The position numbers and the translations under genes were made by a program. The notes beneath the pieces were generated by a model, which saw nothing but the letters and a program-made list of their open reading frames with translations, did no database searches and was not told the DNA's origin. A DNA stretch of 24,000 bases from contig NZ_JBEWZH010000006.1 in assembly GCF_045310485.1 (NCBI RefSeq), forward strand, positions 38,785-62,784, written 5' to 3'. The first letter of the stretch is position 1; each line of letters starts with the position of its first letter. Source of the stretch: Aquirufa salirivi (GTDB lineage: Bacteria; Bacteroidota; Bacteroidia; Cytophagales; Spirosomataceae). Positions 15,386-24,000 of the stretch are shown here, piece after piece.

Positions 15386-16579
15386 TCATTCTTTTTTAAT
15401 TAATCGTTTTAGTAACAAAAAACTAGAATTTAAAAAACCCGAGAATGAATAAGCATTTGGATAATGATCCATTCGTTTTAATGTTTTAAAATATTTTAGA
15501 TAGACTATTATATGTTTGAAATAAGCGAAATCTTTATCTTGAAATTGGGTTGTTAAATATAAATGTCTTAACGTTAAAGCTCTATTACTACCCCAGTAGG
15601 AGGCTTTTTCCCATTCCTTAACGATTAAATCAATTTTAGAGCAATCAAAGTTATCCAAGTAATTATCTAAAATGGGCGGTAATTTGTAATCTAAATAAGA
15701 TTTCAAGATGGATAAAGCATTTTTGAATGCTGTTGTTAATCTGTAATCATCAACTAGTGATATAACTAATTCCCAATTGATTTTTTTATCATATTGATAC
15801 ATGAATGCATGAAAGTCTTGAATGTGTCTTAGTCTAAACCAAGATTCTTTTCCTCCATGGTGTGCTAATAACATCCAAAATAAGCCTTCTGAATTAAGCT
15901 GTTGAGTTTCAATGCCATTAAATTTCAATTTTTCGGTTAAATCAAATACTCGATCTATTAATGGTTTTTTCTCTTGATACTTTTGATAAAAAAAGTGCTG
16001 AAATAAATCCCAATGAAAATCTAGATTTATGATTCCTTTTTGTAAATGAATTTCATTGTGTAAACTTTGATTGACAATTAACTCTTTTAAATCTTCAGGA
16101 AGAATATTTAGATGGCTAAGATTAGGTGAATTGATTCTGTAACCATCTTGAAGTAAAATTTCTAATCCTTGGATAAGATGTTTTTTTTCAATTAGAACAT
16201 CTAAATCTGAAGTAGTTCGTACTTGTTTGTTTTGATATATCCCTTGAATCAAGATATTTCCCTTTAATACCAATAAGGGAATCTGATGTTCTGAAAATAG
16301 TTTTAAAAGTCGAGTTGTCTCCGCGGCATATTGCAAATTTTTAACAACTTGCTGAGCCATAAATAATTTCACCTCAGTTCGGATGCTCTCAGCCATGAAT
16401 TTTTCCTTTCTTTCATAGGAAAATATAAGCGCTTGAATTCCGTGATAACGATACAATTTTGATAATCTACCCGTATCGTAGGGTAAATCAGTAAAAATAG
16501 GTGCAAATCCTTCCTGTTCAAATTGATTTGTGATTGCCTGGATAAGTATGTCTAATTCGGGGGAAAACTCTTTTTTCAT
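15386..16579 (-). CDS. Nucleotidyltransferase-family protein (PF14907-like), putative lasso-peptide tailoring enzyme
   Basis: About 397 aa. It shows the pattern seen in 'uncharacterised nucleotidyltransferase' proteins: LLVLKGNIL...RTTSDLDVLI...DFHWDL. The start is set to the ATG at 16579, which overlaps the ABC stop in TGATG. Family call is by recollection of the motif pattern. Confidence 0.6.
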   Translation of the reverse strand: MKKEFSPELDILIQAITNQFEQEGFAPIFTDLPYDTGRLSKLYRYHGIQALIFSYERKEKFMAESIRTEVKLFMAQQVVKNLQYAAETTRLLKLFSEHQIPLLVLKGNILIQGIYQNKQVRTTSDLDVLIEKKHLIQGLEILLQDGYRINSPNLSHLNILPEDLKELIVNQSLHNEIHLQKGIINLDFHWDLFQHFFYQKYQEKKPLIDRVFDLTEKLKFNGIETQQLNSEGLFWMLLAHHGGKESWFRLRHIQDFHAFMYQYDKKINWELVISLVDDYRLTTAFKNALSILKSYLDYKLPPILDNYLDNFDCSKIDLIVKEWEKASYWGSNRALTLRHLYLTTQFQDKDFAYFKHIIVYLKYFKTLKRMDHYPNAYSFSGFLNSSFLLLKRLIKKE

Positions 16580-18342
16580 CACACCAGTTGTTGGTCATAT
16601 AGTTGTTTGAATAGGCCATTCTTGTTTTTTAACTCATGAAAGCTTCCCTTTTCTACAATTTTGCCTTCATCCATGACATAGATATAATCAGCTAGTTTTA
16701 GGTTGTAAAGTCGATGTGTAATAATAATGGTCGCTCTATGAGCAGCTATTTTTTTAAAATTTTGAAATATGGTTGCTTCTGAAATGGCATCCAATGCACT
16801 AGTGGGTTCATCTAAGACAATGAGATGAGCTGGTCTATAAAAAGCTCTAGCGATGGCTAATTTCTGCCATTGGCCTCCACTGATCTGTTCGCCACCTGCA
16901 AAAATTTTCCCTAATCTCGTCTCATATGATTGTGGAAGTTGTTGGATGAATTCGTCAGCGTCCGCTAATCGTGCAGCTTCTTGGATTGCCTCCATATCGA
17001 TAGGCTGATCTAAATTGCCCATGGCAATAATTTCTTTGATTTGTAAAAAGTATTTTTCAAAATCTTGAAAGACAAATAGGCTGTTTTGCTTAAATTGGTC
17101 AGCATTTAATTCCTGATAGCGATGACCATTCCAAGTGATTTCACCTTGACTTGGACTATATAATCCAGCTAGTAGTTTGATTAAAGTCGTCTTTCCTGCT
17201 CCATTCATCCCTACAATAGCAATAGTTTGACCTATCTGACAGGTTAGATTAATCTGTTCTAATGTTTTTCGAGTTGATCCTGGATATTGGAAATCTACAT
17301 GCTTAATTTCTAGGCCTTGTCCTGTATTTTCCATTGGTATTGTTCCATGGATAGGTTTATCCCGATCCAATGTGAGGAATTGGTTAAAATCTTGTATGAA
17401 TCGACGCTGTTGGAATAACTGGAGTAATGAATTTAATAGATTTTTTAGGGTACTTTGAATTCTTTGAATACCCTGGATATATACGATGAATAAACTTATA
17501 CCAATGGATTGTGTAAAAGCCATTTGAGCTAGTTCGTACAGAATATAAAACAAGATGGACAATTCAAGTAGTTCTGTCAAAAAACCTAAACTGATTAACT
17601 TCATTTGAAGCGAATTCTTTTTAAGGAAAATGAAGGTTTTTATTTCCTTTAAACGACTTAGAAGATAAGTTCCAAAATTGAGTGTTCGCAATTCTTTGGC
17701 ATAAGCGCTGCCTGTCAGTAAATGTATTAAATAATAAGACTCTCTTTCTTTGCTAACTAATTGTTTATCAAGTCGATGTAAAGCAAAACCTGAATACCAT
17801 TTGATCATGCTTAATGGAGCAGCGACAAATAATATTAACCACGCATAAGTTTTGATAAGGGTAAAAAAATAGAACATTAGTACGGTAAAAGTCAACAATT
17901 GCGTCAAGAATGATTTGAAGTTTTGGTAAATCAAAGGCAGATTTTGTTGTGATTGTTGCTGCGCTATATGTAAGGAGTCTTGATATTGGGCTTCTTCGTA
18001 ATACGTATAGGGTATTGCGATAGCCTTGTTTAAAATTTTATAAACGATTTCATTCGTTATTTTTTGCTCTTGAATAAATGAAATGTAGTTATCTACGTTA
18101 GTTAATAATGATTGAAAAATTTGTAATACAATCAATAGTGCAATCCAAGTTAAAATAGAATTAAAACTAGTCTGAGAAAGGTGGTTAAAATGATCAAATA
18201 TGTTTTTAGTTACAAATAAAAGTGCCGTTGGAATCAAAGCTGAAATCACAGCTATTAGAAACTGGAATAGCGTATTCTTCTTATTTAATCCAAATAATAG
18301 CTTATAAACCAGTAAGAAATCTCGAATGATGTTGAATTTCAA
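16579..18342 (-). CDS. ABC transporter, fused permease/ATPase (lasso peptide exporter, D-type)
   Basis: 587 aa. The N-terminal TM domain is followed by Walker A GMNGAGKTT, signature ISGGQWQK, Walker B LIVLDEPTS and H-loop ITHRL. Only a TTG start (18342) is available; the first in-frame ATG is codon 156. Confidence 0.85.
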   Translation of the reverse strand: MKFNIIRDFLLVYKLLFGLNKKNTLFQFLIAVISALIPTALLFVTKNIFDHFNHLSQTSFNSILTWIALLIVLQIFQSLLTNVDNYISFIQEQKITNEIVYKILNKAIAIPYTYYEEAQYQDSLHIAQQQSQQNLPLIYQNFKSFLTQLLTFTVLMFYFFTLIKTYAWLILFVAAPLSMIKWYSGFALHRLDKQLVSKERESYYLIHLLTGSAYAKELRTLNFGTYLLSRLKEIKTFIFLKKNSLQMKLISLGFLTELLELSILFYILYELAQMAFTQSIGISLFIVYIQGIQRIQSTLKNLLNSLLQLFQQRRFIQDFNQFLTLDRDKPIHGTIPMENTGQGLEIKHVDFQYPGSTRKTLEQINLTCQIGQTIAIVGMNGAGKTTLIKLLAGLYSPSQGEITWNGHRYQELNADQFKQNSLFVFQDFEKYFLQIKEIIAMGNLDQPIDMEAIQEAARLADADEFIQQLPQSYETRLGKIFAGGEQISGGQWQKLAIARAFYRPAHLIVLDEPTSALDAISEATIFQNFKKIAAHRATIIITHRLYNLKLADYIYVMDEGKIVEKGSFHELKNKNGLFKQLYDQQLV

Positions 18343-18467: not shown

Positions 18468-19385
18468 ATGTATAAATACGTTGCATTGGGAATGCAAATT
18501 CAATCTGAAATTGAAATTCCAGGCTTGTTTCCTTTTGACTTCCAAGAAAGTGGGGACACCGTTATTGTCAAAATAGGTACTGTACCAGAGACTCTTCAAA
18601 ATGAAATATTAGAAGTAAAGCCTTTTTCTTTCTTCAACGAGCGTGAGTTTATATTTCATATTCCAGAGGCAGCAAAATTTTATATTACGAATGGGAATAA
18701 AATACTAATAGAGCCATTAACGGATAATTTGGATGAAGTGTTTTTTTATCTATACACTGGTGTATTGGCTACTGTATTATTTCAAAAAAATATACTTCCT
18801 TTTCATGTTTCAGGTGTAGTTCTTAAAAACAACACAGTTTTGCTTTTTGCAGGACACCAGAGAGCAGGGAAGTCTTCTACTTCTATCATGCTTCAAAATA
18901 GAGGTTATTTGCCATTTACAGATGATACGGCTGTATTACAAGTTAAAAATGGACTTTGTTATGCAACTTCCTCATACCCGATTATTCGGGCAATGGAACG
19001 AACTTTAGAGAAGCAATCGGTCTATTCAGATGACGAAATAACGCCGAAAATTAAAGAAGGCTTTAAGTTTGGAATAAATTTTCATAAAAAGTTTACTCCT
19101 GAGCAGTTACCCGTTAGTGGTATCGTTTTTTTAAGTGAAGATGGGGATGAGGTGGAGATTTCGCCAATGAAATCAACAGAAGCCATTAAATTGTTAAAGT
19201 TTAATATTTACAGAAAACAGTGGGTCAATGGTATGAAAAAAGAACTTCTTGAATTTCAGACGATTTCACAAATTGCTCAGAGTAAATTACATTTTTTTTC
19301 AGTTAAGCGCCCTTGGGAATCCGATAGTTTTGAGATTTTAGCACAAGCCATAGAAGATCAAGTCATTCATCAAATTGGAAAATAA
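18468..19385 (+). CDS. HPr kinase-like (HprK-related) peptide kinase
   Basis: 305 aa. The HprK C-terminal-domain pattern is HVSGVVLKNNTVLLFAGHQRAGKSSTSIMLQNRGYLPFTDDTAVL, comprising a P-loop GxxxxGKS and a downstream DD. It is adjacent to lasso B1/B2 genes, as in paeninodin-type clusters. Confidence 0.72.
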   Translation: MYKYVALGMQIQSEIEIPGLFPFDFQESGDTVIVKIGTVPETLQNEILEVKPFSFFNEREFIFHIPEAAKFYITNGNKILIEPLTDNLDEVFFYLYTGVLATVLFQKNILPFHVSGVVLKNNTVLLFAGHQRAGKSSTSIMLQNRGYLPFTDDTAVLQVKNGLCYATSSYPIIRAMERTLEKQSVYSDDEITPKIKEGFKFGINFHKKFTPEQLPVSGIVFLSEDGDEVEISPMKSTEAIKLLKFNIYRKQWVNGMKKELLEFQTISQIAQSKLHFFSVKRPWESDSFEILAQAIEDQVIHQIGK

Positions 19386-20226
19386 AAAGAATATAGTTTG
19401 GCTTGCTTCTTATCCTAAATCTGGGAATACTTGGTTTAGGAGCTTTATTTCAGCACTTAGAAATAAAGGAGAAGTCGATATCAATGCTATTTCTACTGAA
19501 GGGATATTTTCTCAAAAAAGAGGGTTGGAAGAATGTTTGGATTTGGATGCAGATGAAATACCTGTGTCTAAAATGGATCAATTTAAGCGCATATCTTTTG
19601 TGCACCAATCAAATACTTCTGCCAAGAAGTGTTTTGTGAAAATCCATGATTTGTATTCCATGTCAAAAATTGACCATCAACCTATTGTACCAGAAGAGTC
19701 TACATTGGCTGCTATCTACTTTGTGAGAAATCCGCTGGATGTAACTATTTCAATGGCAAATCATAATGGACAAACCTTGGATGAGACCATTGCCAAAGTG
19801 GTGTGTAATGAACATGCAAATTTGGTTCGATCAGAAAAACATGCGCAAGATCAGTTTCAGCAATATTTAGGCACATGGAATATGCATGTGGAAAGTTGGA
19901 AAAAGGTCACAGCTTTTCCCGTAATTTTTATTCGATATGAAGACATGAAAAAGAATCCCCAAGATTCATTTTCACAAGCTCTGAAACAGATTGAATATGA
20001 GGCAACTGAAGAAGAAATACAATTAGCTTTAGAAGCTTCCCAATTTGAAAAATTAAAAAATCAAGAAGTTGAGTTTGGATTTAGAGAAAAACCAAAAGCC
20101 TGTAAGTCATTTTTTAATAAAGGAGAGGTTGGTCAATGGAAAGAGCAATTAAATCAAGTACAAATCAATAAAATAAGACAATTTAATGAACCTATGATGC
20201 GAGAATTCGGATATTGGGAAGAATAA
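19375..20226 (+). CDS. PAPS-dependent sulfotransferase (cytosolic SULT-like fold)
   Basis: 283 aa. It has a 5'-phosphosulfate-binding loop SYPKSGNTW, a RNPLDV...H segment and a 3'-phosphate-binding motif FNKGEVGQWKEQL. A TTG start at 19375 is forced, because the PSB loop begins at residue 12 and the first ATG is codon 67. It overlaps the kinase gene by 11 nt. Confidence 0.8.
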   Translation: MENKKNIVWLASYPKSGNTWFRSFISALRNKGEVDINAISTEGIFSQKRGLEECLDLDADEIPVSKMDQFKRISFVHQSNTSAKKCFVKIHDLYSMSKIDHQPIVPEESTLAAIYFVRNPLDVTISMANHNGQTLDETIAKVVCNEHANLVRSEKHAQDQFQQYLGTWNMHVESWKKVTAFPVIFIRYEDMKKNPQDSFSQALKQIEYEATEEEIQLALEASQFEKLKNQEVEFGFREKPKACKSFFNKGEVGQWKEQLNQVQINKIRQFNEPMMREFGYWEE

Positions 20227-20231
20227 TAAAT

Positions 20232-20522
20232 ATGGAAAATATGGAAAACATGACATACGTTTTTAATGAAGAAAGAGTATTATTAACCCAATTAGGAGAA
20301 GAAGGAGTTTTATATGATATTCAATCCAATGAATATTTTACCTTAAATGAAACCTTGTTTTATATCGTAGATGGGATTAAAAAGGGACTAACTTTGGTAG
20401 AAATCGGCGAAATATTAATGAGCAAATACGATATCGATGAGAATTTGTGTTATCAAGAAATAGCCAAAGCTATCCAACAATTGGTAGAAAAAAATATCCT
20501 ATTAGAACAAAATAATGCTTAG
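20232..20522 (+). CDS. PqqD-family RiPP recognition element (lasso B1)
   Basis: About 96 aa with the PqqD pattern: EEGVLYDIQSNEYFTLNETLFYIVDGIKKGLTLVEIGEILMSKYDIDEN...QQLVEKNILLE. The start is set to the ATG at 20232 (the track used TTG at 20214). Its end overlaps the B2 start by 8 nt. Confidence 0.72.
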   Translation: MENMENMTYVFNEERVLLTQLGEEGVLYDIQSNEYFTLNETLFYIVDGIKKGLTLVEIGEILMSKYDIDENLCYQEIAKAIQQLVEKNILLEQNNA

Positions 20523-20940
20523 GGTAATTAGTCTTTTTTTAAAATTAAGTTTTCGTAACCAGAGTCTTATTTTGGGGACAATCATCCTATCTGTTTATTG
20601 TTATTTTTTATTTAAAATAAAGCCGACCTGGATTAGATTTGGCCGGATTCACCAAGTTAAATTGGAAACGGGAAAAATTGATTGGAGACTAGTTAAGGAT
20701 ATTCGGGAGTCAATTCGATTAGTAAGTAAAAGATTACCTCTTCATTTAGTTTGTCGCCATGAAGCTTACATTGCTAAAATATGGTTGAATTATTATAAAA
20801 TCCCCTACAAGATTTATATTGGATTCAAATATGGGGATGATAAAAGCATTCTGGGACATGCTTGGACAGAAGTGCAAGGCAGACAAATCACGGGGTTTTG
20901 TGATCCCCAGGATTATGTGATTCAGGCTATATATACTTGA
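20515..20940 (+). CDS. Lasso peptide leader peptidase B2 (transglutaminase-like Cys protease)
   Basis: 141 aa. The candidate catalytic Cys is in LVCRHEAYIAKIWL, the His in GHAWTEV, and a downstream Asp in CDPQD. The size and motif order match split-B lasso proteases. Confidence 0.75.
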   Translation: MLRVISLFLKLSFRNQSLILGTIILSVYCYFLFKIKPTWIRFGRIHQVKLETGKIDWRLVKDIRESIRLVSKRLPLHLVCRHEAYIAKIWLNYYKIPYKIYIGFKYGDDKSILGHAWTEVQGRQITGFCDPQDYVIQAIYT

Positions 20941-20991: not shown

Positions 20992-21144
20992 TTAGTAACC
21001 CAACATATGATCAGAATCAAGTAAGAATTTGAGTGGATTCAAATCGATTATTTCTTCGGTATTCCACTTTTCTAATTTAGGACTTTCCCATTTTTTGAGA
21101 TCGGGAGAATTCGTGTCATCATTCAATAATACTTTCTTCTTCAT
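20992..21144 (-). CDS. Unannotated 50-aa ORF with a lasso-leader-like motif (candidate second precursor or leader-bearing peptide)
   Basis: Hand translation: MKKKVLLNDDTNSPDLKKWESPKLEKWNTEEIIDLNPLKFLLDSDHMLGY. ATG at 21144-21142 and TAA at 20994-20992. WESPKL fits the Y/WxxPxL RRE-recognition motif. The motif spacing is shared with the ORF at 23844-24000. It lies 67 nt downstream of the SET gene on the same strand. It is too short for the supplied ORF track. Confidence 0.4.
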   Translation of the reverse strand: MKKKVLLNDDTNSPDLKKWESPKLEKWNTEEIIDLNPLKFLLDSDHMLGY

Positions 21145-21211: not shown

Positions 21212-21712
21212 TTATTTGTATTTCAATGGACTTATTTTTTTCATTAGATTTCTGTAAAGCCAATAGTTTTCTCCATAAGAAACAAAAATTTCTTCATTTG
21301 GGGGGATATCATCTCTTGCAATAATGGTCATAGTTTCTAGACGAAAATCAAGCTTTTGTATCGTGTTGGGTTTATTAGCATGGTTGTATAATGAACCATT
21401 CCCCAACGCTAAATAAACTTTGTTTCCATGTGTATTACATACTTCGCACTTGCAACTTTGATTAGCCCAAATGTAATCTAACATGGTAGGTTCCGATAAA
21501 TAGAATGAGCGCCATTTTAAAGCCAATAGTCTGGCTTCTTCAATTAACTCCCCTTGTTTGATTAGTTCATTGGAAAAAACACCAAATCCATGAATTGAAG
21601 ATTGACTTAATCTAATTTTAGATGATATACCAGCTATATCATATTTAGGTTCAGAAATTTCACAAGGATTTAACACGGTAAATATTTTTTGTTTGAAGTA
21701 ATAAATATACAA
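21212..21712 (-). CDS. SET-domain protein (putative lysine N-methyltransferase)
   Basis: SET motifs appear in order: GFGVFS (GxG), NHANKPN (NHxxxPN) and EEIFVSYGENYW (ExxxxY). There is a Cys-rich insert, CKCEVC. No ATG start is available: the options are TTG at 21712 or GTG at 21676, and the first ATG is codon 77. It lies 34 nt downstream of the cyclase stop. Confidence 0.7.
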   Translation of the reverse strand: MYIYYFKQKIFTVLNPCEISEPKYDIAGISSKIRLSQSSIHGFGVFSNELIKQGELIEEARLLALKWRSFYLSEPTMLDYIWANQSCKCEVCNTHGNKVYLALGNGSLYNHANKPNTIQKLDFRLETMTIIARDDIPPNEEIFVSYGENYWLYRNLMKKISPLKYK

Positions 21713-21746: not shown

Positions 21747-23630
21747 CTAAACAAATTTGTTTGGGTGAGATTGGATAAATAGCGCACAACTTATTGACCT
21801 TGTTAGATAAATGGAGTTATTGTATGCATTTTTGTTTCTAGGATCTTTAATGATGCTAGCAAGGCTATCTTTCATTTTTTGAATATCCAGATAATAGGTA
21901 ATCGCCTTATTTTGATCGAAAGACTCTAATAATTGTTCAAACTCTTTTGCTTCATTTGCGATTCTAAGCGAAAGATCAGTAGCCTGTCTACCTTTCTTTT
22001 TTTGGTGAATTAAATCATCTAACAATCTACCTTTCATGGCTGTTTTTATTAACCACTTTGGTGTGTCATATCGGTAATAGTATTCGTTGGGAACTGATAG
22101 GCAAAATTCTACTAAATTTTTATCGGCACTCGGATCAAAGGTTTTGATATCAAAATAGTAGGAAAGGTCATGCCATACGGCTCCAATTTTACTGAATTGA
22201 GGATTAATAAATTGAATTTGTTTTTTTTCATTTGGAACTAATTGACGAAAATAGGGATCATGGCCAGATTCCAACATCCTTTTTTCTAAATCAATATCTT
22301 CAGCAAATTTGGAGTTTATGTGAGAATAAGAATCCCAAATTTTGGATTGATCAATACCCATGTATTTTTTAAATTTTTGGGACATGAGCCCAATGTAAGA
22401 GGATATTGTTAGCTTTTCATTGCTATCAAAGCCAATAAGTTGTTTAATTTTTTCTTTGACGGAATTTTTTTCTGTATAACCCGTCCAAGAAATAGTTGAG
22501 TTTCCAAATTGACCTATCAACATGGTGTCAATTCCCTCTTTTCCGGCATTTCGATAAATTTCATAGATCCAAAAAAGATTTCCTGCTGCATGCAAAGGGC
22601 TATGATGCAGATCAGTCATCTCTTTGAGATTTTGAACAATGGAAACCTGCTCACTCCGAATTAATTGTAAATCTACATTACCTAAAAATTGAGCAGTTGG
22701 TATGGTTAGGTATGATTCATTGGTGGCAGTTAGTGGATTAAATAAATCAGAAGTATCCTCTTTTGGAATGGATGTAAATGCTGTTAAAGACTTTCCTTCT
22801 TTTTTTAAGATTTCAGATGCTACCGTGGTGATGGTACTGGAATCAAATCCTGAACTTAATTGGCTTCCGATTTTATTTGCTCCTTGTATTCTATTTCTTA
22901 CCGACTGTTCCAATTTTGCATTAAAGCGAGTCACATATTCCATTTCAGTATTCAGCTGTAGTACAGGAGTGTTTTCAGCTATCCAATATCTTTTGAACTC
23001 AGTTTTGCCATTAATAATTTTTAAGTAATGCGCAGGAAGTAAAAAATGAATGTCTTCAAAGGCTGTTTCATCATTTAATCTATCCCAAACTGTCAAAATG
23101 CCAGCTATATAGCTTTCGTTAATTTTTAGATGGCTTTTGTCAAAATCAAGAAGTCCTTTAAGTAAAGAAGAGAAAGCTATATAATCATGTCCTTTTCTAT
23201 AATAGATCGTACCAATTCCAAATGGATCTCTGGCAAGGAATAATTCTTTAGAATTACCATTCCAAATAACTAAAGTCCATTCACCGTCAATTTTTTTTAC
23301 AAAATCATCTCCTAGCAATAAATATAATTTTAGGAGAAGTATGTTGTTAGGAATAGACTCATCTATTTTCATTGACAAAAGGGTAAATAAGTCCTTTCGG
23401 TTGTCAATTCGACCAGTGGAAATAATCTGGCAATTATTTTCTGAGTATAGTAATTCTTGAGCTTGAAATTCTGTATGGAGAGATCTGGTTTGTACACCAA
23501 TGTGACTACCATGGTCTACTGAATCTGATATTAGGCTAGGGGCAAATTCACTTAAGGAATTTTGTATGATGGGAAATAGATCAGAATTAGTATCTGGGTC
23601 AAATGATACTAAACCGTACAAAATATTCAT
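21747..23630 (-). CDS. Lasso peptide macrolactam synthetase (asparagine synthetase B-like, C protein)
   Basis: 627 aa. It has an AsnB-like two-domain layout but the N-terminus MNILYG lacks the Cys2 glutaminase nucleophile. It carries a PP-loop variant, SSGFDSS. It is clustered with B1/B2/ABC genes. Confidence 0.85.
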   Translation of the reverse strand: MNILYGLVSFDPDTNSDLFPIIQNSLSEFAPSLISDSVDHGSHIGVQTRSLHTEFQAQELLYSENNCQIISTGRIDNRKDLFTLLSMKIDESIPNNILLLKLYLLLGDDFVKKIDGEWTLVIWNGNSKELFLARDPFGIGTIYYRKGHDYIAFSSLLKGLLDFDKSHLKINESYIAGILTVWDRLNDETAFEDIHFLLPAHYLKIINGKTEFKRYWIAENTPVLQLNTEMEYVTRFNAKLEQSVRNRIQGANKIGSQLSSGFDSSTITTVASEILKKEGKSLTAFTSIPKEDTSDLFNPLTATNESYLTIPTAQFLGNVDLQLIRSEQVSIVQNLKEMTDLHHSPLHAAGNLFWIYEIYRNAGKEGIDTMLIGQFGNSTISWTGYTEKNSVKEKIKQLIGFDSNEKLTISSYIGLMSQKFKKYMGIDQSKIWDSYSHINSKFAEDIDLEKRMLESGHDPYFRQLVPNEKKQIQFINPQFSKIGAVWHDLSYYFDIKTFDPSADKNLVEFCLSVPNEYYYRYDTPKWLIKTAMKGRLLDDLIHQKKKGRQATDLSLRIANEAKEFEQLLESFDQNKAITYYLDIQKMKDSLASIIKDPRNKNAYNNSIYLTRSISCALFIQSHPNKFV

Positions 23631-23843: not shown

Positions 23844-24000
23844 TTATTGGTTATATGTTTTCACGCCACCGTCTACACCAACACCATATTTTAAGCCCAA
23901 ATTGACATATTCCCAAATGATGATTTGAGGGTCTATCCAATTCTTTTTTTCATAGGACAATTGAGAGTCTATTTTATTTGACTGTAGGGTAAAATGTTCA
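23844..24000 (-). CDS. Small or partial ORF ending in a lasso-compatible core (best precursor-peptide candidate); the frame is open to the window edge
   Basis: Hand translation from the window edge: EHFTLQSNKIDSQLSYEKKNWIDPQIIIWEYVNLGLKYGVGVDGGVKTYNQ*. TAA at 23846-23844. No in-frame ATG is visible. An in-frame TTG at 23960-23958 would give a 38-aa peptide. WIDPQI fits the Y/WxxPx(L/I) leader motif, and the core GLKYGVGVDGGVKTYNQ has Gly1 and Asp9. Confidence 0.4.
   Translation of the reverse strand, partial: EHFTLQSNKIDSQLSYEKKNWIDPQIIIWEYVNLGLKYGVGVDGGVKTYNQ

Follow-up and report, generated by a model that had tools for sequence, protein, structure and literature searches.

The 24,000-nucleotide (nt) stretch of the Aquirufa salirivi genome analyzed here, hereafter the window, carries a lasso peptide cluster made up of a cyclase, a B1 protein, a B2 peptidase, an HPr-kinase-like protein, a sulfotransferase, a nucleotidyltransferase, a SET-domain protein and an ATP-binding cassette (ABC) exporter. 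Our subject is a small open reading frame (ORF) of this cluster, whose minus-strand translation is MKKKVLLNDDTNSPDLKKWESPKLEKWNTEEIIDLNPLKFLLDSDHMLGY (50 amino acids (aa), ATG start, closed by a stop codon). This focal ORF lies 67 nt downstream of the SET gene, which itself follows the cyclase gene; its original placement at the 3' end of a cyclase-SET unit is therefore correct. It is convergent with the B2 gene. The cyclase, B1 and B2 genes are all at most 2.5 kb away, and this arrangement is kept in six related cluster lineages (Table 1). Comparison of these sequences leads us to favor, with moderate confidence, the view that the focal ORF encodes the precursor of a third, divergent class in a lasso cluster with many precursors.

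Table 1. Positions of the focal gene, its parts and the neighboring genes in the window, and of class-2 precursor genes in related loci
Feature	Position	Strand	Basis or remark
Focal gene, 50-aa class-3 precursor-like peptide	20992..21144	-	ATG at 21144; TAA stop at 20992-20994
Leader recognition motif W19-E-S-P22-K-L24-E-K-W27 (WxxPx[L/I]xxW)	21064..21090	-	Alignment and profile matches
Class-defining block L35-N-P-L-K-F-L41	21022..21042	-	Alignment and 12-member table
Candidate macrolactam acceptors D43 (21016-21018) and D45 (21010-21012)	21010..21018	-	12-member table
C-terminal Tyr50	20995..20997	-	Ser at the equivalent site in the other 10 class-3 members
Hairpin, perfect 9-bp stem, 7-nt loop	20962..20986		Between the convergent focal gene and B2
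SET-domain protein gene	21212..21712	-	Pfam PF00856, E = 7e-12; directly upstream of the focal gene
Lasso cyclase (C protein, Asn-synthase-like)	21747..23630	-	Pfam Asn_synthase/GATase_7
B2 leader peptidase (transglutaminase-like)	20515..20940	+	PF13471; NF033537 lasso_biosyn_B2, above cut-off
B1, PqqD-like RRE (RiPP recognition element; RiPPs are peptides made by the ribosome that then undergo post-translational modification)	20214..20522	+	PF05402; NF033536 lasso PqqD chaperone, below cut-off
Sulfotransferase	19375..20226	+	PF00685, E = 4e-29
305-aa protein, HPr-kinase-like candidate	18468..19385	+	Weak TIGR04352 HprK_rel_A match
ABC exporter	16579..18342	-	Pfam
NTP_transf_5 nucleotidyltransferase	15386..16582	-	Pfam
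Edge ORF, class-1 precursor gene, runs off the window end	23844..24000	-	Carries KKNWIDPQIIIW
Class-2 precursor genes	L005 9507-9671; L006 8844-9008, 9613-9774; L008 9512-9929; L020 943-1384; L022 1144-1753

With Aquirufa ecclesiirivi the window shares about 97% identity, and its cyclase shares 97% with the counterpart in strain 50A-KIRBA. The cyclase also matches the NCBIfam model of the lasso isopeptide cyclase (NF033535) with E = 5e-66, below the curated cut-off of the model. The true start of the SET gene likely gives a protein of 154 aa (21212-21676). The genes for the ABC exporter and the NTP_transf_5 protein are common to all related clusters. The focal peptide is 98% identical to a "hypothetical protein" annotated in NCBI records of A. 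ecclesiirivi and has no match in Pfam or NCBIfam. The hairpin between the focal gene and B2 folds as RNA at -10.1 kcal/mol (z = -4.07 against shuffled sequences) and may act as a bidirectional terminator of both genes. A consensus terminator scan did not call this AT-rich hairpin and found no GC-rich terminator; the sigma-70 promoter/terminator scan is uninformative here, since Bacteroidota lie outside its coverage.

Three precursor classes and their common leader motif

The precursors of the Aquirufa clusters fall into three sequence classes. Class 1 is represented in the window by the edge ORF, the last of an array upstream of the cyclase, which has no upstream stop inside the window and is cut by the window end; its full-length form in the sister strain (L001) is MENVHATLQSNKIDSPLSYDKKNWIEPQIIIWEYVNLGLKYGVGVDGGVKTYNQ, of 54 aa. 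In that strain, 50A-KIRBA, the cluster extends past the window edge and holds 13 intact and two broken class-1 precursor genes (L001 1795-7301), plus an adenosine phosphosulfate (APS) kinase gene. The class-1 genes have about 50-60 codons and follow the pattern ...KKNW[VI]SPE[IL]xxWENxN[IL]EN-xGGxGADGGxK[AT]Yxx, with the Gly-rich core xGGxGADGGxK[AT]Y. Such an array is unusually large for a lasso cluster. Two of its copies are broken (L001 3994-4149 and 4243-4353), one by a leader deletion and one by truncation, and a 47-aa fragment of an APS-kinase gene lies within it (L001 2228-2371). The broken precursors and this fragment point to repeated tandem duplication and decay.

Class 2 was found in other Aquirufa species, in related clusters that we located via the SET protein (A. 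beregesia-like, A. aurantiipilula and metagenomic Aquirufa). Its genes lie between the cyclase and SET genes and follow the pattern KKTWESPEIxKWxxxxxLN-L-x6-D-G-x3-4-S; Ser is the C-terminal residue in nine of the 10 distinct peptides, the exception being a Tyr-ended peptide of L022. The window has no class-2 gene; its cyclase and SET ORFs as listed are separated by 34 nt, or by about 70 nt if SET begins at the more likely start that gives 154 aa. The focal ORF belongs to the third class.

The focal ORF and the KKNWIDPQIIIW element of the edge ORF share the same W-x-x-P-x-[L/I]-x-x-W spacing, and both translations thus bear out the identical W-P-(L/I)-W spacing claimed in the original prediction. 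When the window is translated in all six frames, W..P.[LI]..W is met twice, once in each of these two ORFs, whereas 500 dinucleotide-preserving shuffles gave a mean of 0.062 occurrences and none with two or more. We also built a profile from the 13 upstream class-1 precursors of the sister strain, without any class-3 sequence. Among 652 six-frame segments of the window, the edge precursor scored best and the focal ORF came next, with E = 4.4e-4. The earlier judgment that the match is unlikely to be due to chance is upheld by both results. A further profile, from seven class-2 peptides of other species, matches the focal ORF with E = 4.2e-5.

The motif is conserved throughout the third class: W19, P22 and W27 are invariant in 12/12 members, and at position 24 eleven members have Leu and the other has Val. 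It is also common to 42 class-1/2 precursors of the related clusters, which supports the earlier proposal of a second leader-bearing, precursor-like peptide. WxxPx[L/I]xxW is the local form of the lasso YxxPxL motif. As the W-x-x-P-x-L-x-x-W element of the focal leader recurs in all other precursors of the cluster, this leader should be bound by the single B1 protein, a PqqD-type RRE and the presumed reader of this motif.

The class-3 family and its conservation

Twelve distinct peptides make up the class-3 family. Met1, the leader motif and the LNPL block are present in each of them, and all belong to Aquirufa-type lasso clusters. They come from the window together with L001-L004, from L006/L007 (two tandem copies), L008/L009, L020/L021, L018/L019 (where the gene lies between cyclase and SET), L010, P0022 and the orphan pair of L016/L017. 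In related clusters the gene keeps its place in an operon of the order cyclase-(class 2)-SET-(class 3) that converges with B2. The class-3 member P0019 comes from a short metagenomic contig, L010, on which two further small ORFs (207-320 and 480-644) both end in ...GKA[PS]KS[TM]IGWLKTT and may form another repeated small-peptide family.

The signature of the class is WxxPxLxxW-x3-E, followed by LNPL[K/H]FL, an Asp/Glu of shifting position and a C-terminal Ser. Besides the three leader residues, E31, N36 and P37 are invariant in 12/12 members; S21, L24, L35, L38, F40 and L41 are nearly invariant, and position 39 is Lys or His. An acid is found at the D43 column in 6/12 members and at the D45 column in 9/12, counts that are not independent, as the members are mutually related. 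No member lacks both acids, and three, among them the window peptide and L006b, have the two together. In the b-type members (WC[SG]PS..., LNPLKFLAE...; for instance P0019, LNPLKFLAEFN) the acid occupies the first column alone, in the remaining a-type members (LNPL[KH]FLINTD; for instance P0017, LNPLKFLINTD) the second alone, and all members keep at least one Asp/Glu within 9-11 residues of LNPL. Ser ends the peptide in 10/12 members; the two that end in Tyr are the window peptide and its A. ecclesiirivi ortholog. The Tyr-ended class-2 peptide mentioned above comes from the closest other lineage (L022, SET 87% identical), and it seems that a C-terminal hydroxyl residue, not Ser specifically, is the feature that is kept.

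Class 3 shares with classes 1 and 2 the WxxPx[L/I]xxW leader and an Ile/Leu five to six residues after the second Trp. With class 2 in particular it shares the "KKxWESP" flavor of the leader, the C-terminal Ser, a short tail and a place adjoining the SET gene. The classes differ in their cores. That of classes 1 and 2 is Gly-rich, and its acceptor Asp is fixed at +14 to +16 and precedes Gly or Ala, whereas class 3 has the hydrophobic LNPL[K/H]FL core, the class-specific invariant Glu31 and a wandering acid.

These comparisons lead us to regard the focal ORF as a genuine gene, small and conserved. Between species, the synonymous sites of class 3 are saturated (proportion of synonymous differences, pS, 0.65-0.93), while the proportion of nonsynonymous differences (pN) is 0.16-0.43, and the ratio of nonsynonymous to synonymous rates (dN/dS) is 0.18-0.36 where it can be computed. 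In 10/10 class-3 copies examined the sense frame alone is free of stops, every other frame having stops in nearly all copies. The start codon, length and stop are kept across species, and the flanking intergenic DNA, unlike the ORF, can no longer be aligned. The original prediction named conservation in related clusters among its checks, and a lack of conservation or a disrupted frame among the outcomes that would speak against it; the ORF proved to be conserved, its frame kept and its dN/dS low.

A chance ORF, or a decaying and functionless pseudo-precursor in the spacer between convergent genes, is accordingly very improbable, and the dN/dS and frame-openness tests refute it. The ORF is indeed short (50 codons), lies in AT-rich DNA and has no Pfam or NCBIfam match, and L005 and L022, two related clusters, do without it. 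However, its dN/dS is well below 1 with saturated synonymous sites, and it persists where its surroundings have diverged beyond alignment. A precursor that is truly broken looks different, as the truncated copy at L001 4243-4353 illustrates. No RNA family accounts for the region either, the Rfam scan giving only two sub-threshold eukaryotic families. In L005 and L022 the SET and B2 genes abut, and because the class-3 gene is missing there it is dispensable for the cluster as such.

The family appears to be restricted to the genus. An exhaustive HMMER scan of 1.84 billion representative proteins gave five matches, none of them outside the Aquirufa group except the spurious P0016, a 705-aa repeat protein with ten copies of "WGAPTLEKW" that was discarded as a low-complexity match. 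A scan of JGI (Joint Genome Institute) metagenomes with family-derived patterns matched 386 stretches, none of which was confirmed, and a genome-contig scan with the window cyclase returned only the A. ecclesiirivi contig. Class 3 is thus a well-supported, genus-restricted class of leader-bearing precursors, as judged from these comparisons.

Further information on selection comes from a relic second cluster in A. beregesia (L016 10001-11040, contig JBPXKM010000002). Here, two intact class-3 genes lie far from the main cluster, followed by a convergent B2 pseudogene (44% identity, six in-frame stops) and a 15-aa B1 remnant; in L017 the B2 remnant is shorter still. Both class-3 ORFs of L016 retain every family-invariant residue, and the main cluster of the same genome is intact. 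As the enzymes have decayed while the peptide ORFs keep their invariant residues, the locus argues for continued selection on the pair, which would presumably be used in trans by the intact main cluster. Peptide genes that stay intact beside a dead B2, in a family confined to one genus, would also suit a role that needs no dedicated enzymes, that is, a peptide with a leader that forms no lasso. The intact main cluster makes use in trans equally possible.

Core start and ring register

Class 3 breaks the usual rules for lasso cores. As the original prediction stated, no Gly, Ala, Ser or Cys is followed at the expected distance by Asp/Glu seven to nine positions later. It was also right that Thr29 is not at position -2 of any plausible core: a core beginning after Thr29-Glu30 was rejected, since a start at Glu31 has no acid at positions 7-9. 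The focal peptide thus lacks Thr(-2), and none of the 42 other cluster precursors has it. In the kinase-associated lasso system Bsf, Ile(-2) is a validated alternative to Thr(-2) (PMC10368454). Of the three rings proposed earlier, Trp27-Asp34 has to be abandoned. Asp34 is replaced by Asn in the sister strain and by Thr, Ala or Glu elsewhere, and Trp27 is an invariant residue of the leader motif.

The other precursor classes offer a guide to the register. In most class-1 peptides the acceptor Asp, followed by Gly or Ala, is at +14 after the second Trp, and in class 2 at +15/+16. Ile, Leu or Met is found nine residues before the acceptor Asp in 35 of the 42 distinct class-1/2 peptides; if this hydrophobic residue is position -2, the class-1/2 rings would have eight residues and, in a few cases, nine. 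In class 2 the Ile/Leu lies six residues after the second Trp, and Ile/Leu is found at the same offset in 11/12 class-3 members. When the focal peptide is aligned to the class-2 profile, the L-N|L junction of the latter falls on I33-D34|L35. Because of this spacing and profile homology with class-2 precursors, the focal junction is probably I33-D34|L35, with a ring closing on D43. The two remaining rings of the original prediction, Leu35-Asp43 and Asn36-Asp43, are therefore favored by the class-2 spacing, yet the Asp43 column is acidic in only 6/12 members.

We propose the following route for the focal peptide. After B1 has bound the leader, B2 would cut two residues past the Ile/Leu situated six after the second Trp, as in class 2, giving I33-D34|L35. 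The cyclase would then join the new N-terminus to Asp43, which is 16 residues after Trp27 and within the class-2 acceptor range of +15/+16. The product would have the nine-residue ring LNPLKFLLD and the seven-residue tail SDHMLGY; closure from N36 to D43 would instead give an eight-residue ring. The tail would thus be seven residues after D43 or five (HMLGY) after D45, compared with five to six after the Asp in class 2. For the family as a whole, B2 would cut near L35-P37 and the ring would close on D43 or D45. The A. aurantiipilula cluster (L008) has no class-1 genes, which leaves only classes 2 and 3 as candidate substrates of its cyclase. There, the APS kinase gene directly precedes the cyclase gene with no class-1 genes between (L008 6788-9191), and class-2 and class-3 peptides appear to be the only ones that this cluster uses.

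Several observations weigh against the lasso reading. In addition to the lack of a canonical first residue, the acceptor column is not conserved across class 3, and a start at L35 would demand an 11-residue ring in the six members without an acid at the D43 column; we know of no natural lasso ring of that size. In the focal peptide, Asp43 or Asp45 lies seven to nine residues from L35, N36, P37, L38 or K39. When these starts are compared across the 12 members, L35 or N36 places Asp/Glu at ring positions 7-9 in 6/12, and L38 or K39 (closing on D45, with a tail of four to five residues) in 9/12. Pro37 alone fits 12/12, and to our knowledge its secondary amine has never been reported as a lasso nucleophile. 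The LNPL[K/H]FL block matches the leader motif in conservation, which is unusual for a RiPP core, and it could serve for recognition or have a function of its own in a peptide that does not undergo cyclization. The replacement of the C-terminal Ser by Tyr in the focal peptide and the absence of the gene from L005 and L022 count on the same side. We infer cyclization of class 3 from sequence comparison, and any core register proposed here is tentative.

These points lead to a tentative second reading, in which class 3 is either cyclized via Pro37, the ring toggling between seven and nine residues as the acid moves, or uncyclized, with a functional LNPL[K/H]FL block. A ring of an unprecedented kind is the more doubtful, and we regard it as improbable. 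It would form through a tertiary amide at Pro37, with seven or nine residues, or would span 10-11 residues in the members without a D43-column acid; we know of no Pro1 lasso peptide and of no natural lasso ring larger than nine residues. Pro37 is the only start that gives an Asp/Glu at ring position 7, 8 or 9 throughout, Asn36 and Pro37 are both invariant, and an L-N|x junction as in class 2 would put the cut just before Pro37. However, this fit was obtained with 12 short related sequences and about five candidate start columns, and it may be a by-product of acid columns lying two residues apart. By distance from the leader motif, moreover, the class-2 L-N corresponds to I33-D34 and not to L35-N36. 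A change of one residue in ring size also usually lowers the yield (PMC13352647).

That the peptide bears a leader and forms no lasso at all is possible, though on the whole unlikely. B1 would still bind it, and B2 or a tailoring enzyme might act on it to give a linear product; or it would be a competitor for or regulator of B1 occupancy, much like the regulatory or decoy peptide considered in the original prediction, or an adaptor. In each case the LNPL[K/H]FL block would be its functional or recognition part. The conservation of this block and of E31 at the level of the leader motif, while the acid wanders between two columns, agrees with such a role, as does the missing canonical ring-start residue of the focal core. 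On the other hand, a wandering acid is just what a required acceptor of shifted position would look like: all members keep an Asp/Glu 9-11 residues from LNPL, and intermediates carry both acids (the window peptide and L006b). The C-terminal Ser and the tail of four to five residues after D45 likewise mirror class 2, which has five to six residues after its fixed acceptor Asp. In addition, we know of no precedent for a "decoy leader" among lasso systems.

Tailoring genes, known systems and implications

If the focal peptide is processed as a lasso, its C-terminal hydroxyl residue (Ser in 10/12 members, Tyr here) may be tailored by a kinase, by analogy with paeninodin, or possibly by the sulfotransferase, which would agree with the sulfation of the terminal Tyr considered in the original prediction. 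The candidate kinase is the 305-aa protein, which matches TIGR04352 (HprK_rel_A) with E = 1e-3 and 18 bits against a cut-off of 200; it has no significant Pfam match (one sub-threshold, E = 0.0037). H130, G134-K135-S136, D152 and D153 are invariant in its six orthologs. Lasso kinases have a His-Lys-Asp-Asp motif, with which H130, K135, D152 and D153 are consistent (PMC9266682). The protein is probably an HPr-kinase-like, lasso-tailoring kinase, an assignment that is weak. Searches of the PDB gave one non-significant match by sequence (E = 0.72) and none by profile, and a single-sequence AlphaFold2 model had a predicted local distance difference test score (pLDDT) of 31 and was unusable. Because the C-terminal Ser is replaced by Tyr in the focal peptide, the kinase analogy is not directly transferable to it.

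The cluster also holds the sulfotransferase, and in the sister strain an APS-kinase gene lies at its far end (L001 1160-1732). Together with the conserved Tyr near the C-terminus of all class-1 cores, these genes suggest O-sulfation of Tyr in a lasso peptide, a modification for which we found no description. HPr kinase and sulfotransferase genes have been noted in lasso clusters without an assigned function (PMC4289311).

The SET gene, which is lysine-methyltransferase-like, is constant in the Aquirufa lasso clusters, and the class-1 cores keep a Lys or Gln two residues before the conserved Tyr. SET orthologs of 152-154 aa with at least 64% identity are confined to lasso clusters of the Aquirufa type. 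More distant homologs, under about 50% identity, lie in unrelated, partly phage-like contexts (L011, L013); two of these distant proteins, P0014 (49% identity) and P0015 (34%), come from non-lasso settings and are uninformative on the peptide. A literature search returned nothing that links SET-domain proteins to lasso biosynthesis and nothing on lasso peptides in Aquirufa.

Among known systems, the paeninodin type (PadeA, ThcoA, SyanA, PsmA, BsfA) resembles the Aquirufa clusters in its split B1/B2, its HPr-kinase-like and nucleotidyltransferase genes and its xxPxL leader. In these systems the precursor receives a phosphate on its C-terminal Ser prior to maturation, and the site is conserved in kinase-bearing clusters (PMC9266682). 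The class-3 family likewise has its C-terminal Ser in 10/12 members and likely an Ile/Leu at -2, as validated for BsfA (PMC10368454, PMC9266682). In contrast, the window peptide ends in Tyr and so lacks this Ser, and its core has neither a G/A/S/C start nor a fixed acceptor column and carries the nearly invariant LNPL[K/H]FL block. The Aquirufa cluster furthermore adds a SET protein, a sulfotransferase and an APS kinase, and the kinase itself is assigned from a weak match and a motif.

The caulosegnins of Caulobacter segnis show that one B/C enzyme set can serve several precursors, with rings of eight and nine residues (PMC13352647). Unlike that system, the Aquirufa clusters have three sequence classes, with up to about 17 precursor genes each, and the class-3 core diverges far more from the other classes than the caulosegnins do among themselves. 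Bulky first residues are known from fusilassin and cellulassin (both Trp1-Glu9) and from halolassin (Tyr1-Glu8) (bioRxiv 10.1101/2020.11.25.399105). A large hydrophobic residue at the start of a nine-residue ring provides a precedent for Leu35-Asp43. These peptides are, however, actinobacterial, with a Thr(-2) leader and a fixed acceptor, and have no sequence similarity to the focal peptide.

A cluster with about 14-17 precursor genes together with SET, sulfotransferase/APS kinase, kinase-like and nucleotidyltransferase genes may be of interest in its own right. Tools that score precursors by a Gly1/Asp8-type core and Thr(-2) probably rank class-3 genes low. The family also forms a natural series, with the acid at the first column, at both or at the second, in which the choice of ring size is directly testable. 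If class 3 is cyclized via Pro37 or left uncyclized, for example as a regulator that binds B1 or as a linear product with a tailored C-terminus, product classes of different chemistry would share a single RRE; and a leader-bearing non-substrate kept by selection would also be new. If the class-3 peptides are processed, one Bacteroidota lasso enzyme set would accept three core types, two Gly-rich and one hydrophobic, and the substrate rules for lasso cyclases and leader peptidases would be wider.

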